A stretch of 29,289 nucleotides of DNA from a virus (lineage: Duplodnaviria > Caudoviricetes), in the IMG/VR virus record IMGVR_UViG_3300012953_000153, positions 1-29,289 of that record; one strand, written 5' to 3'. Position numbers and translations under genes: made by a program. Shown here in pieces: positions 9,204-26,549 of this stretch (positions are counted from its first letter, which is position 1; the number at the start of each line of letters is the position of its first letter). The notes under the pieces are model-generated. The model was not told the origin of the DNA, did not search any database, and saw nothing but the letters and a program-made list of their open reading frames with translations.

Positions 9204-10592
9204 ATGGCTGATTTAAAGCAATTACAAGAAAAGTGGGCACCCGTACTTGATCACGAAAGTCTTCCAAAGATTGAAGACTCTCACAAGCGTGGCGTAGTCG
9301 CACAACTTCTTGAAAACCAAGAATTTGCTGCTCAAGAAGAGCAACAAATGCTAACAGAGGCACCTACACATTCTGCTGGAACAGGCGGATTTGGTAGTGG
9401 TGCAACAGCAACTGGTCCTAACGCAGGTTTTGACCCAGTTCTAATCTCATTGATTCGCAGATCAATGCCTAAGCTTATTGCTTATGACATTGCTGGTGTT
9501 CAACCAATGACAGGTCCTACTGGACTAATCTTCGCGATGCGTACTAACTATGGTACACAGCGTGATCCTCAGAATGCTGCATACAGAGAGGCATTCTTCA
9601 ACGAACCTAACCCAGGTCAATCAGGTGGTAGCGGTACTTCCTATGATCCAGGTGCTTCAGGTTCTGCAAACAACGATGCAGAAGGTAACAACCCTGCTGT
9701 ATTAAACGACTCATCTCCAGGTACATACGAACAGACTGCTGACGCAACTGGTATGGCAACAGCAACTGCTGAAGCTCTTGGAGAATCAGGAACTGAGTTC
9801 CGCGAAATGGGTTTCGCAATTGAGAAGGTAACTGTTACTGCTAAGTCTAGAGCACTAAAGGCAGAGTACAGTTTAGAACTTGCTCAAGACCTTAAGGCAA
9901 TTCATGGTTTGGATGCCGAACAGGAATTAAGCAACATCCTCTCAACTGAGATACTTGCTGAAATCAACAGAGAAGTTGTTAGAACAATTTACACAAACGC
10001 TGTAAAAGGTGCTATCAATGATACTGCTGCTGACGGAATCTTTGACCTAGACGTTGACTCAAATGGTAGATGGTCTGTTGAAAAATTCAAGGGACTTCTT
10101 TTCCAGATTGAAAGAGATGCAAACGCTATCGGGCAAGAGACTCGTCGCGGGAAGGGCAACATCCTGATTTGTTCAGCTGATGTCGCTTCTGCTCTTGGAA
10201 TGGCTGGTGTACTAGATTACGCACCTGCTCTTAATGGTAACAATGCTTTAACATCTGTTGATGATACTTCATCTACTCTTGTTGGAACATTAAACGGACG
10301 TATCAAAGTTTACGTTGACCCTTATTCTGCTAACGTTGCTGACAAGCACTTCTACGTTGCTGGATACAAAGGTACTTCTGCTTATGATGCAGGTCTGTTC
10401 TATTGCCCTTATGTACCTCTACAGCAGGTCAGAGCAATCAACCCAGATACCTTCCAACCAAAAATTGGATTCAAGACTCGTTACGGAATGGTTTCTAACC
10501 CATTCGCACAGGGTCTTACACAAGGTAGTGGAGCACTTACTGCTAATACTAACAAGTATTACAGAAGAGTTCAGGTTACTAACTTGATGTAA
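9204..10592 (+). CDS. g23: major capsid protein (gp23)
   Basis: LQEKWAPVL, GVQPMTGPTGLIFAMR, KSRALKAEYSLELAQDLKAIHGLDAE, FQPKIGFKTRYG. Confidence 0.98.
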   Translation: MADLKQLQEKWAPVLDHESLPKIEDSHKRGVVAQLLENQEFAAQEEQQMLTEAPTHSAGTGGFGSGATATGPNAGFDPVLISLIRRSMPKLIAYDIAGVQPMTGPTGLIFAMRTNYGTQRDPQNAAYREAFFNEPNPGQSGGSGTSYDPGASGSANNDAEGNNPAVLNDSSPGTYEQTADATGMATATAEALGESGTEFREMGFAIEKVTVTAKSRALKAEYSLELAQDLKAIHGLDAEQELSNILSTEILAEINREVVRTIYTNAVKGAINDTAADGIFDLDVDSNGRWSVEKFKGLLFQIERDANAIGQETRRGKGNILICSADVASALGMAGVLDYAPALNGNNALTSVDDTSSTLVGTLNGRIKVYVDPYSANVADKHFYVAGYKGTSAYDAGLFYCPYVPLQQVRAINPDTFQPKIGFKTRYGMVSNPFAQGLTQGSGALTANTNKYYRRVQVTNLM

Positions 10593-10611: not shown

Positions 10612-10640
10612 AAACAGGGTGCTTGACACCCTGTTTTTTT
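10612..10640 (+). terminator. rho-independent terminator after g23
   Basis: Stem AAACAGGGTG / CACCCTGTTT (10 bp), loop CTTGA, T7 tract at 10634-10640. Confidence 0.9.
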
Positions 10641-10650
10641 ATGCTATAAT
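10623..10650 (+). promoter_or_regulatory. sigma70-type promoter TTGACA-N16-TATAAT with extended -10
   Basis: TTGACA 10623-10628, TGc-TATAAT with -10 at 10645-10650; overlaps the terminator. Confidence 0.85.
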
Positions 10651-10656
10651 ATAGGG

Positions 10657-10841
10657 GTAACGACGGTTACGTCGGGAGTGACTGAATAAACTTACTGGCA
10701 TATAGCTGGTTAAGGTGATGAGACACAGGTGGTGCTGCTACGAAAGTAGAACCGATCAACCAATCGGGTCTCAGGCAGAGGAGTTTTTCTAAACTGTAGA
10801 AATGCCCTCCTCTTGTTGGTACACAGGAATCCAACCTCCCC
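10657..10841 (+). ncRNA. large structured RNA, probably manA RNA motif-like
   Basis: Nested helices read by eye: GGGAG 10674-78/CTCCC 10836-40, CTTACTGGC/GCTGGTTAAG, TGAGAC/GTCTCA enclosing CTAC-GAAA-GTAG and CCGAT/ATCGG, AGAGGAG/CTCCTCT enclosing TTTCTA/TAGAAA, GTTGG/CCAAC. Directly downstream of a promoter. The manA name is from recall and needs an Rfam check. Confidence 0.75.
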
Positions 10842-10864
10842 CTTTACAATTTAATCAGGAGATT

Positions 10865-11365
10865 ATGAATATCTTTGTTACTGATCCTGATCCGATTGCA
10901 TCTGCACAAGTTTTACCAGACAAGCATATTGTTAAGATGCCTCTGGAGACTTGTCAGATGCTTTCTATTGTTGGATCTTCTAAATGGGGTCACGGTTTTG
11001 GTTCTCTTCCGAAAAAAGATGGCACACCATATGCAACTGAGAAAGGTGCATTTCGTAATCATCCTTGTACTGTCTGGGCACAGACTAATTTCCTTTGGTT
11101 GATTGACCACGGACTTGCTTTATGTGCAGAGTACAGACACAGATATAATAAGGTACATAGTTGTGAGACCGCTATGAGACACGCAAACAAAATCTTTCCT
11201 CAGAACAATGATTTCCCTAAAAGTTTCACGAGAGCAATGCCAGACATCTATAAATATGACACAAGCATTGACACTTTTACTGCTTACAAGAATTACATTA
11301 GCAGCAAACCTTGGGTTGCATCTAATTATCTTCGTGACCCATCCCGCAAACCAAATTGGTTATGA
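10865..11365 (+). CDS. pyrimidine-dimer DNA glycosylase (DenV)-like phage protein
   Basis: MNIFV..DKHIVKMPLETCQMLS, NHPCTVWA, LCAEYRHRYNKVH, AMPD, AYKNY; AGGAG SD before ATG 10865. Confidence 0.75.
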   Translation: MNIFVTDPDPIASAQVLPDKHIVKMPLETCQMLSIVGSSKWGHGFGSLPKKDGTPYATEKGAFRNHPCTVWAQTNFLWLIDHGLALCAEYRHRYNKVHSCETAMRHANKIFPQNNDFPKSFTRAMPDIYKYDTSIDTFTAYKNYISSKPWVASNYLRDPSRKPNWL

Positions 11366-12894
11366 ATTTTCTAGGACTAAGACTTGACGATCATGATGCC
11401 AACATCACATACACAAACGGTACTGAAGTAAAGTACTATAATACAGAAAGAGATTATCAATCAAAACATTTTGCATATAAAAATCTAACATCTTGGGTAG
11501 ATGTTTTAAAACGTTGGGATTTAGATCCGCATGAAGTAAATGCTATTGGTATAGTATTTGATAATGATAAGTACCCTAAATTAAAGTGTGATCACACCCA
11601 AACATATGAGAAGATAGAGATCCCACTCTTTAGAGATATGGGATTTTATTGTCCTATCTATAGAATAGATCATCACTATGCTCATGCTAAAAGTCTGTGG
11701 CCAATGAACGTAGATACTACGATTGACTTTGTGTATGATGGTTTTGGTGATGATAGAATTACACGCACTATATTTAAAGATGACAAAAGAATACAGATGG
11801 GTACTATGGATGACTCACCTAGTTTTGGTTCTGTATTAGGAGATATTGGTGGTCATATTTTAAAACTAAGTGGGTGGGATTCTGACATGGCAGGTAAAGT
11901 CATGGCATTAAAAGCACATGGTAGACTATCAAAAGAGTCTATTGAGAAAACTAAGTTGGAGTTAAAGACGTATGAACAGTGTAACATTGATGGGATACGC
12001 GACCTATGGAATCTTCCTTATCTTGAGCGTCTCGTATATAATTCTATTTCTAAGGAGGGGGAAGACCTCAAGATAGTAGATCATATTCAATTTTGTCATG
12101 AGGTAACTGAAGATATATTCATGAAGTACTTCTTAGAGAATAGTACAAAGGAAGATGTCATTGGATACTCAGGTGGTGTTGCACTGAATACTATTATCAA
12201 TTCCAAATTAAGAAAGGCACGGAATATACATATACCTCCTCATACTAATGATGGTGGTTTGAGTCTTGGAATAGTAGAAGTATTGAGAGAGATTTATAAT
12301 GAAGAACCATTTGAAACAGATGGGTTTCCATACTGGCAAGATGATGAAGCACCTGTTGACAGACCTTCACAAAGAACAATTGAAGAAACTTGTGAGTTAC
12401 TTGCTGATGGTAATATAGTTGGATGGTATCAAGGTCATGGTGAATGCGGACCTAGAGCATTAGGTAATAGAAGTATTCTAATGAGACCTGATCTTAGAGA
12501 CGGAAAGAAATTTATTAATGATAGAGTCAAAAATCGTGAGTGGTTTAGACCATTTGGTGCATCTATATTAGAAGAGAATGTTAGTGACTACTTTGAATTT
12601 GAAGGTAAGTCTGAGTTTATGTTATATAATATGCCAACTAAAGATCCTAATACCTTTGCACCTATTGCCCATGTTGATGGTACATGTAGAGCACAAACAG
12701 TAGGACAAGACAAAGAAGACTTTTATAATTTACTCAGTACTTTTAAAGGTGTAACTGGTTTACCTATGGTACTTAATACATCACTTAATCAAGGTGGTGC
12801 ACCAGTCGCAGGTCGTATTAATGATGCACTTGGTATTCTACATAATACTGATCTAGATGTACTTGTAGTCGGGGATGCCATCTATTCTAAATAG
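11362..12894 (+). CDS. carbamoyltransferase, NodU/CmcH (TobZ) family
   Basis: HDA, DHHYAHA, DGFGD, AGKVMAL, SGGVALN, NDGGLSLG, GPRALGNRS, KNREWFRPF, HVDGTCRAQ, LNTSLN; ATGA overlap with the upstream gene. Confidence 0.92.
   Translation: MNFLGLRLDDHDANITYTNGTEVKYYNTERDYQSKHFAYKNLTSWVDVLKRWDLDPHEVNAIGIVFDNDKYPKLKCDHTQTYEKIEIPLFRDMGFYCPIYRIDHHYAHAKSLWPMNVDTTIDFVYDGFGDDRITRTIFKDDKRIQMGTMDDSPSFGSVLGDIGGHILKLSGWDSDMAGKVMALKAHGRLSKESIEKTKLELKTYEQCNIDGIRDLWNLPYLERLVYNSISKEGEDLKIVDHIQFCHEVTEDIFMKYFLENSTKEDVIGYSGGVALNTIINSKLRKARNIHIPPHTNDGGLSLGIVEVLREIYNEEPFETDGFPYWQDDEAPVDRPSQRTIEETCELLADGNIVGWYQGHGECGPRALGNRSILMRPDLRDGKKFINDRVKNREWFRPFGASILEENVSDYFEFEGKSEFMLYNMPTKDPNTFAPIAHVDGTCRAQTVGQDKEDFYNLLSTFKGVTGLPMVLNTSLNQGGAPVAGRINDALGILHNTDLDVLVVGDAIYSK
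12887..12893 (+). promoter_or_regulatory. late promoter (CTAAATA) for g3
   Basis: TAAATA at the end of the carbamoyltransferase gene, 22 nt before the g3 ATG. Confidence 0.6.
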
Positions 12895-25068: not shown

Positions 25069-26002
25069 TTTCCTCTGGGTAGAGAAGTACAGACCCACAA
25101 AAATTGATGATTGTATTCTCACTGATTCTATTAAGGATACTTTCAAATCTTTCCTAGATAAAGGTGAGATACCAAATCTCTTACTAGCAGGTCCGCCTGG
25201 CGTAGGTAAGACCACGGTAGCAAAAGCATTATGCAATGAGTTAGGAGCAGATTTCTATGTCATTAATGGGTCTGATGAAGGTAGATTCTTGGACACTGTA
25301 CGCAATCAGGCAAAGACCTTTGCTTCTACTGTCTCTCTTGTTGGTGGAGCGAAGCACAAAGTACTTATTATTGATGAAGCAGATAATACCACCAATGATG
25401 TCCAGTTACTATTACGTGCAAGCATTGAAGAGTTTCAAAAGAACTGTCGTTTTATCTTTACATGCAACTACAAAAACCGTATCATTGAACCCCTCCATTC
25501 TCGTTGTAGCGTTGTTGAATTTGGTATAACTGGTAAGGCAAAGATGGAACTGTCTCAGCAGTTCTTCAAACGTGTTAATACTATTCTCGGTACAGAGAAT
25601 GTTGAGTTTGAGATGAAGGTAGTTGCTGAGTTGATCAAGAAGTACTTCCCTGATTGGAGAAGAGTACTGAATGAACTACAACGCTATGCAGCAGGTGGTA
25701 GAATTGATAGTGGTATCCTATCCATTATTGGTGATGCTAAGATGGATAAGTTGGTTGAAGCATTGAAGCAAAAGAATTTTACTAACGTTAAATCATGGGT
25801 AGTTCATAATATTGATAATGATGTTACGAGTTTATTCAGACAGATTTACGACACCCTATATACTAAACTGGAACAGCAGAGTGTTGCTGCTATGGTTCTG
25901 ATCATTGCTGACTATCAGTATAAAGCAGCGTTTGTTGCTGATCAAGAAATCAATCTTCTAGCATGTCTTACACAATTGATGATGGAATGTAATGTCAAAT
26001 AA
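25058..26002 (+). CDS. g44: clamp loader large subunit (gp44)
   Basis: LWVEKYRP, GPPGVGKT, IIDEAD, SRC. Confidence 0.96.
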   Translation: MPSDFLWVEKYRPTKIDDCILTDSIKDTFKSFLDKGEIPNLLLAGPPGVGKTTVAKALCNELGADFYVINGSDEGRFLDTVRNQAKTFASTVSLVGGAKHKVLIIDEADNTTNDVQLLLRASIEEFQKNCRFIFTCNYKNRIIEPLHSRCSVVEFGITGKAKMELSQQFFKRVNTILGTENVEFEMKVVAELIKKYFPDWRRVLNELQRYAAGGRIDSGILSIIGDAKMDKLVEALKQKNFTNVKSWVVHNIDNDVTSLFRQIYDTLYTKLEQQSVAAMVLIIADYQYKAAFVADQEINLLACLTQLMMECNVK

Positions 26003-26549
26003 AGTTGGCGAAATAGCAATCACTCAGAGAAAGATTGATCTACTACAGATGATGAATGAGAGTTGTTATCGTAAAGGTAACTTCAAACTATCATCTGGGA
26101 AAGAAAGTGAACACTATATTAATTGTAAAAATTTAACCTTATCAAGTACTGGACTTCGTATGATCTCGCAGTTAATGTATGAGATGGTAGAAGAGAACTC
26201 TTCAGCAGTAGCAGGTCTTACATTAGGTGCTGATCCCCTTGTAGCAGGTGTGTCATTAACATCCTATGGTAAACTAGATGCATTCATTGTTCGTAAAGAA
26301 CCTAAAGGACATGGAACTCAAGCATGGATTGAAGGTCCTCCTCAAGTAGAAGGTGCTAGAGTTACTATTTTAGAAGATGTAATTACTACAGGTGGTTCAG
26401 CAATTAAGGCAGCAGATATAATGAGGAGAGCAGGTTATCAAGTTGAGAGAGTTGTTAGTATAGTTGATAGACAAGAAGGGGGAGAGCATGCTATAATGAA
26501 TGCAGGTCTAGAACTAAAGAGTATCTTTACTATTGAAGATTTCAAATGA
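25992..26549 (+). CDS. pyrE: orotate phosphoribosyltransferase
   Basis: FKLSSGKESEHYI, GLTLGADP, RKEPKGHG, PRPP loop ILEDVITTGGS. Confidence 0.93.
   Translation: MSNKVGEIAITQRKIDLLQMMNESCYRKGNFKLSSGKESEHYINCKNLTLSSTGLRMISQLMYEMVEENSSAVAGLTLGADPLVAGVSLTSYGKLDAFIVRKEPKGHGTQAWIEGPPQVEGARVTILEDVITTGGSAIKAADIMRRAGYQVERVVSIVDRQEGGEHAIMNAGLELKSIFTIEDFK

Follow-up and report, generated by a model that had tools for sequence, protein, structure and literature searches.

The structured tract that follows the major capsid gene g23 in this virus is a full-length manA RNA. Comparison with its relatives makes it moderately probable that manA is a stand-alone non-coding RNA, made by the host RNA polymerase, which self-assembles through the loop contacts L5–L7′ and L8–L9′ into pentamer-based, RNA-only assemblies. 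The preliminary description had offered either a riboswitch-like leader or a stand-alone RNA; as judged from sequence comparison the second is better supported, because the promoter is kept while the neighbours vary, a Shine–Dalgarno core is infrequent, each genome holds one copy and the slot can be flanked by tRNA genes. The leader is weakly supported.

An Rfam scan of the whole 29,289-nt stretch analysed here (the window) returned manA (RF01745) as the sole family above cut-off, with 184.5 bits against a threshold of 55.2 (E = 3.7e-50) and the model covered from end to end (1–192/192; Table 1). The likeness to manA that had been proposed from the letters is borne out; the scan gave no match to wcaG, PhotoRC-II, other cyanophage motifs, GOLLD or ROOL. 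This covariance-model match is decisive for the identification, folding alone being modest: the single-sequence fold (−58.4 kcal/mol, z = −2.35) lies modestly above chance, with 3 of 200 shuffles equally good. The record is a 29-kb linear viral one that encodes T4-like terminase, sheath, portal, g21–g23, uvsY/W, g55 and replisome genes, and myoviruses of Synechococcus and Prochlorococcus give the window its closest annotated DNA matches. These matches, with the T4-like genes for head and replication, place it among the marine T4-like cyanophages, in which manA occurs. Elsewhere in the window (25992–26549), a phosphoribosyltransferase-like gene (phrog_32468) and a DNA methyltransferase lie between clamp-loader genes. 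The manA copy is 89% identical over 229 nt to that found after g23 in phage metaG-MbCM1; it is a typical member of an already catalogued family, at a site also used in cultured phages.

The family was described by Weinberg et al. (2010) from marine metagenomes, cyanophages and two gamma-proteobacteria as a cis-regulatory RNA and riboswitch candidate, in the portion of that paper available to us (PMC2864571). The window RNA matches the motif over its full length with all nine helices present and itself shows no difference from it; the gene behind is denV-like instead of one for mannose or fructose, and the comparisons made here speak for a stand-alone RNA more than for the cis-regulatory role given in the family's label. 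The literature searched, with poor coverage of subscription journals, yielded no in vivo manA transcript or function and no reported ligand, and the available portions of five further sources (PMC9964418, PMC12197685, PMC7779021, PMC3023696 and 10.1101/2020.02.04.933952) add no function for manA.

Table 1. Features of the g23–manA region, in window positions.
Feature	Position	Strand	Evidence or remark
g23 major capsid protein gene, upstream neighbour	9204–10592	+	PF07068 Gp23, E 2.8e-148; phrog_138
Intrinsic-terminator-like hairpin of g23, 10-pair stem (10612–10636) and T tract	10612–10644	+	−35 box in loop; T tract is the promoter spacer
Sigma-70-type promoter: −35 TTGACA (10623–28), TG (10642–43), −10 TATAAT (10645–50)	10623–10650	+	12/12 match
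manA RNA, full length	10656–10845	+	RF01745, 184.5 bits, model 1–192/192
P1 hairpin, GACG loop	10657–10670	+	Model alignment; loop GACG in 141/164 loci, GATC in 14/164
P2 closing helix, GGGAG (10674–78)/CTCCC (10836–40)	10674–10840	+	A-U to U-A swap in 12/76
P3 with near-invariant single strand UGAAUAAACUU	10681–10716	+	Alignment
P4 four-way junction, TGAGAC (10719–24)/GTCTCA (10768–73), enclosing P5, P6 and P7	10719–10773	+	Two-sided change in 5/6 P4 pairs
P5, loop UGGU (10730–33)	Within P4 junction, 10719–10773	+	L5 of the L5–L7 kissing pair
P6 hairpin CTAC-GAAA-GTAG, GAAA tetraloop	10738–10749	+	Sequence
P7, CCGAT/ATCGG, loop ACCA (10759–62)	10752–56/10763–67	+	Two-sided change in 4/5 pairs
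P8, AGAGGAG (10777–83)/CTCCTCT (10807–13), loop CUGU (10794–97; L8)	10777–10813	+	Lower stem, two-sided change in 6/7 pairs
P9, GTTGG (10815–19)/CCAAC (10831–35), loop ACAG (10823–26; L9)	10815–10835	+	L8–L9 kissing pair
A/U-rich linker (24 bases) with AGGAG (10857–61)	10841–10864	+	Sequence
Pyrimidine-dimer glycosylase-like (denV-like) gene, first behind promoter	10865–11365	+	PF03013, E 1.7e-16; phrog_624
Carbamoyltransferase-like gene	11362–12894	+	PF16861/PF02543

The RNA was also said to have its own promoter, and at the level of sequence it does: TTGACA and TATAAT, 16 nt apart and with a TG element, form the only perfect example among 16 promoter-like sites between 9000 and 13000. The predicted transcription start lies near 10656–57, about 6 nt past the −10 box. 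The same fusion of g23 terminator and promoter, again with manA behind it, is seen by eye in MbCM1, P-RSM4 and P-HM1, and TTGACA is absent, also by eye, from the g23 terminator of 11 phages that lack manA at this site. Six phages without manA (L401-L405 and L407) have a gap of 190–210 nt after g23 that contains shared sequence blocks with no Rfam match. The compact arrangement, with the −35 box in the terminator loop and the T tract as spacer, precedes manA at other sites too.

Across the family, 98 of 112 distinct homologous loci (9 of 121 were left out as short or duplicate) have a promoter scoring at least 10/12 ahead of them, compared with 54 of 2,636 control windows, a contrast inflated by the mostly coding DNA of the controls. 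The −10 box ends 20–32 nt before P2. A promoter of its own, set at a constant distance from the 5′ end, is what a stand-alone non-coding RNA should have, and manA has it. By eye, TTGACA..TATAAAT is present in 8 of the 12 loci that score lowest, and the other 4 directly follow tRNA-like sequence. Sigma-70-type promoters serve these phages as early promoters. The T4 late motif TATAAATA is found upstream in 9 of the 112 loci and is absent before the window manA; in eight loci (L006, L007, L023, L036, L038, L088, L098 and L101) it overlaps a TTGACA..TATAAAT promoter, and some copies may therefore be transcribed in the early as well as the late phase. Within the window the motif occurs at 11249, inside the denV-like gene and 113 nt before the carbamoyltransferase start, and at 2288, 8028 and 27860.

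Every helix named in the preliminary description was found in its place, and covariation supports the multi-helix consensus fold. In an alignment of 76 close copies, hand-picked for diversity from 135 distinct sequences, the Rfam fold plus the two loop pairs is paired in 95.0% of cells, and 26 of 56 pairs show change on both sides, more than in any of 500 shuffles (14.4 in shuffles) or in any slid control (at most 6). Mean column identity is 79%, and many unpaired bases are invariant, the near-invariant strand UGAAUAAACUU included. The variable pair of P2 is A-U in 103, U-A in 27 and U-U in 5 of the 135 sequences; the upper stem of P8, which falls in a gapped region of the alignment, is only 58.6% paired. 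The sequence ACACAGG does occur twice (10723 and 10821), as had been reported, but it is no conserved repeat and was dropped as such: in most aligned sequences the second copy reads ATACAGG.

Three extra complementarities had been proposed as pseudoknots or alternative folds, and they fared differently. The pairing of UGGU with the ACCA loop (L5–L7) holds, at 99.0% paired with a G-C to A-U exchange in 4 of 76; the pairing of CTGT with ACAG 10725–28 was rejected, two of its four pairs being broken in 20 and 11 of 76 without compensatory change. GGCAT/ATGCC is present, and GGCA 10697–700, in P3, may pair instead with UGCC 10803–06; the two are invariant in 76/76, hence uninformative on pairing. 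The CUGU loop does have a partner in the ACAG of L9, a pairing (L8–L9) that is 99.7% paired with C-G exchanged for A-U in 10 of 76. Over all 135 sequences, L5/L7 reads UGGU/ACCA in 131 and UGAU/AUCA in 4, the latter stemming from a targeted search that returned nine metagenomic loci with the L5 variant; by eye, all seven of these that reach L7 carry the matching change, and two end too early. In viral contigs, two patterns for variants of L5 matched 0 and 0 loci. L8/L9 reads CUGU/ACAG in 123, AUGU/ACAU in 10 and AUGU/UCAU in 2. On a tree of the 76 close copies built without the loop columns, the L8–L9 swap is one event and the L5–L7 swap one or two, so that sequence counts overstate independence. 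In the divergent copies of S-CREM1 and ACG-2014f the L8/L9 four-mers (UGUC/GACA and UCUU/AAGA) are complementary by eye, each with a chance of roughly 1 in 6 by rough count; the S-SSM4 copy has no L8–L9 match and the L5–L7 match of S-CREM1 is imperfect.

Covariation is blind to whether two paired strands belong to one molecule or to two. A recent cryo-EM preprint speaks to this: according to the portion available to us, Ren et al. (2026; bioRxiv 10.64898/2026.07.01.735769) find that manA RNAs build up from pentamers in vitro, at about 3 mg/ml RNA and 10 mM Mg, into octamers, decamers and a T=1 cage of 60 copies. There the loops pair between molecules in the maps (PDB 24QD, 24QE), the pentamer interfaces being L5–L7′ and L8–L9′ in manA_A0F1, and L5–L7′, L3–L8′ and a GNRA receptor in the pho34 type; related variants gave octamers or decamers. 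We matched loop numbers to the preprint by counting helices, which puts the GAAA hairpin at P6, as its L6 GNRA requires. With this numbering the window copy, like manA_A0F1, has complementary L5/L7 and L8/L9, the loops which join the pentamer and 60-mer of A0F1; the oligomers were seen for the preprint's constructs, and their formation by the window copy is a prediction. Two of the three extra complementarities therefore probably matter as contacts between copies, following the preprint, and not as pseudoknots within one molecule.

Homologues were gathered by exact-pattern scans, which sampled 120 viral loci out of an estimated 910 or so and are biased to the close subfamily; a P2 variant added 65 loci out of 106 and the L5 variant the 9 metagenomic ones. 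One pattern for a P2 variant matched 34 loci without a manA among them. Scanning a genome collection produced 120 loci with one full manA and one weak partial match. The full copy (L133, G003:C19:338-528; 182 bits) is of cyanophage type and sits on a 13-kb contig of an archaeal metagenome-assembled genome, probably a mis-binned phage contig. RF01745 matched none of 151 genomes from the class of a cyanobacterial metagenome-assembled genome and none of 151 from the order of a Shewanella genome, sets in which no positive control matched either. The RNA is single-copy in all 7 complete genomes that have it.

The position directly after g23, part of the preliminary description, is true of the window and one of many: g23 lies upstream of manA in 2 of 64 frames tested, from 96 listed, and we dropped the notion of a special link between the two. 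In S-CREM1 and ACG-2014f, manA is flanked on either side by a tRNA gene only 0–1 nt away, so tRNA processing is expected to excise it and there is no protein gene for it to regulate; a discrete 3′ end is implied by these tRNA boundaries. Of 107 metagenomic loci, 6 have a tRNA that begins no more than 20 nt away. In some phages a glutamine riboswitch, wcaG or abiF RNA lies within about 500 nt of manA (L022:312-360, L002:1918-1969, L416:1031-1128 and 1817-1853), making RNA islands with tRNAs.

The alternative that survives best, though we consider it unlikely, is that manA is a riboswitch or protein-sensing leader acting in cis: its fold would close P2 and free the ribosome site, the unfolded 3′ strand CCUCC would cover the Shine–Dalgarno sequence of the next gene, and the cages would be a test-tube by-product. 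The family is classed as cis-regulatory and a probable riboswitch in the available part of its first description (PMC2864571), its many invariant unpaired bases recall aptamers, and manA begins at the predicted transcription start. The first downstream ATG reading frame, found in 91 of 103 distinct loci, is always in sense and within 260 nt, an orientation that says little, as only sense frames were considered and these genomes are mostly one-directional. Some of these genes are metabolic (transaldolase, purS and PMM-like), yet 70 of the 91 fall into 19 unrelated PHROG families (gp32 15, transaldolase 12, Hsp20 5, PMM-like 5, purS 2 and many unknown) and 21 into none; with the tRNA-flanked copies of two genomes, the functional coherence expected behind a riboswitch is missing. 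Nor is an expression platform conserved: a Shine–Dalgarno core (GGAG or GAGG) precedes the ATG in 25 of 130 loci, distances to the ATG span 11–243 nt (median 44.5), and the P2 swap from A-U to U-A turns the anti-Shine–Dalgarno-like CCUCC into CACCC in 27 of 135 sequences. The single copy per genome also speaks against a switch.

Within 100 nt downstream of the RNA, a terminator-like hairpin is present in 32 of 142 homologues against 49 of 646 controls, a conserved uncatalogued hairpin in 28 of 142, and neither type in 82 of 142. The uncatalogued hairpin (in L013, L015, L094, L100 and others) lies 5–45 nt past the manA 3′ end, starts with GACCTAAGATGCAAC, ends with GCAGATGGTC and is often followed by T runs; its internal loop, judged by eye, resembles a kink-turn in having tandem GA pairs together with a bulge. 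It has no credible Rfam match and is absent from the window. The window copy has no terminator after it, so manA is here also the 5′ leader of the denV-like gene, and a fold that pairs CUCC 10836–39 with the Shine–Dalgarno sequence reaches −59.4 against −60.7 kcal/mol (+1.3, in a model blind to kissing loops); for this copy a translational switch is possible. Of 24 metatranscriptome runs listed with small shares, 4 were aligned at 90% likeness, and their contigs cover relatives' manA (about 10672–10847) and conserved parts of g23. No contig of the four covers 10878–11217 or spans the stretch; these are relatives' contigs, which show neither RNA ends nor levels.

We think it improbable that the unit is a mobile promoter with a stabilising 5′ cap, in which a compact fold, its loops paired within one molecule, shields early phage mRNAs or tRNA precursors from host nucleases. 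Promoter and RNA do travel together to many sites: the carbamoyltransferase-like gene directly follows g23 in ACG-2014d and S-SSM4, compared with which the promoter, manA and the denV-like gene form an extra block. A cap would, however, be useless before a terminator, as in the 32 of 142 homologues above, or between tRNAs; each genome holds one copy, the column identity exceeds a shield's needs, and the cryo-EM maps show the loops joining separate molecules (10.64898/2026.07.01.735769; available portion).

Far less credible is a pentameric ring like the phi29 pRNA, serving head assembly or DNA packaging, which would explain the place after g23. T4-type packaging motors are not known to need RNA. 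The likeness, taken from partial sources, is of size and mode of joining, pRNA being a phage RNA of about 174 nt that multimerises by kissing loops, and manA does lie among head genes, in the window as in MbCM1, P-RSM4 and P-HM1. But pRNA is essential for packaging, whereas a search of 16 further complete T4-like genomes, picked from a g23 list after those already known to hold manA had been set aside, found it in 3 and not in the other 13, Syn9 and S-PM2 among them; g23 is rarely its upstream neighbour, and its promoter is of host type, with the late motif upstream at a few loci and not here. The last alternative, a chance folding or part of the small open reading frames that cross the stretch, draws on the modest folding z-score and on a 'hypothetical protein' annotated over the P-HM1 copy, and is refuted, to a negligible residual chance, by the Rfam match and by two-sided change far above that of shuffled and slid controls. 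That P-HM1 annotation, PHM1_121 (L393:2504-2680), spans promoter and manA RNA and is probably a false gene call.

Returning to the stand-alone, self-assembling RNA, its life in the cell would run as follows. Host RNA polymerase would transcribe manA early in infection from the sigma-70-type promoter, starting near 10656–57, and the promoter would also drive the gene behind, here denV-like, as a by-product. The RNA would be cut from the longer denV-like transcript in the A/U-rich linker and trimmed to P2 or, where tRNAs flank it, be released by tRNA processing. Copies may then join loop to loop inside the cell through L5–L7′ and L8–L9′, as those of relatives pair between molecules in vitro. There are precedents in the GOLLD and ROOL nanocages, which in the available part of the source (PMC12286853) are likewise phage-encoded and accessory, often lie by tRNA genes, self-assemble by loop contacts and have an unexplained function; their sequence and fold are unrelated to manA and they measure 600–800 nt against its 190 nt. 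For those phage RNAs an accessory advantage has been guessed (PMC12286853).

This account is weakest on what the assembly is for, where we have a best guess only. Granted the rest, we tentatively suggest, as something that could well be otherwise, a nuclease-resistant multivalent decoy or scaffold that would show its invariant unpaired strands (UGAAUAAACUU and AAUGCC) to a host protein and so give an accessory advantage. A bolder proposal, which we hold to be more doubtful still, is that manA is nature's smallest phage RNA capsule, an RNA made early by the host polymerase that would form pentamer-based shells of up to 60 copies in infected Prochlorococcus and Synechococcus, with its kissing interfaces under selection, and that would sequester a host defence or RNA-decay factor or shelter phage tRNAs, and not a regulatory leader.

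The locus itself is routine; what the comparison adds is a testable reading of the manA family, which is still labelled cis-regulatory and whose close subfamily is carried by an estimated 900 or so stored viral stretches. The cultured phages P-HM1, P-RSM4, P-SSM2 and MbCM1 carry manA, and the naturally swapped loop variants UGAU/AUCA and AUGU/ACAU are ready-made orthogonal pairs for testing pairing between molecules. A conserved promoter of its own, changing neighbours, copies flanked by tRNAs and compensatory swaps in the very loops that build the cages in vitro together suggest that the assembly of manA is biological.
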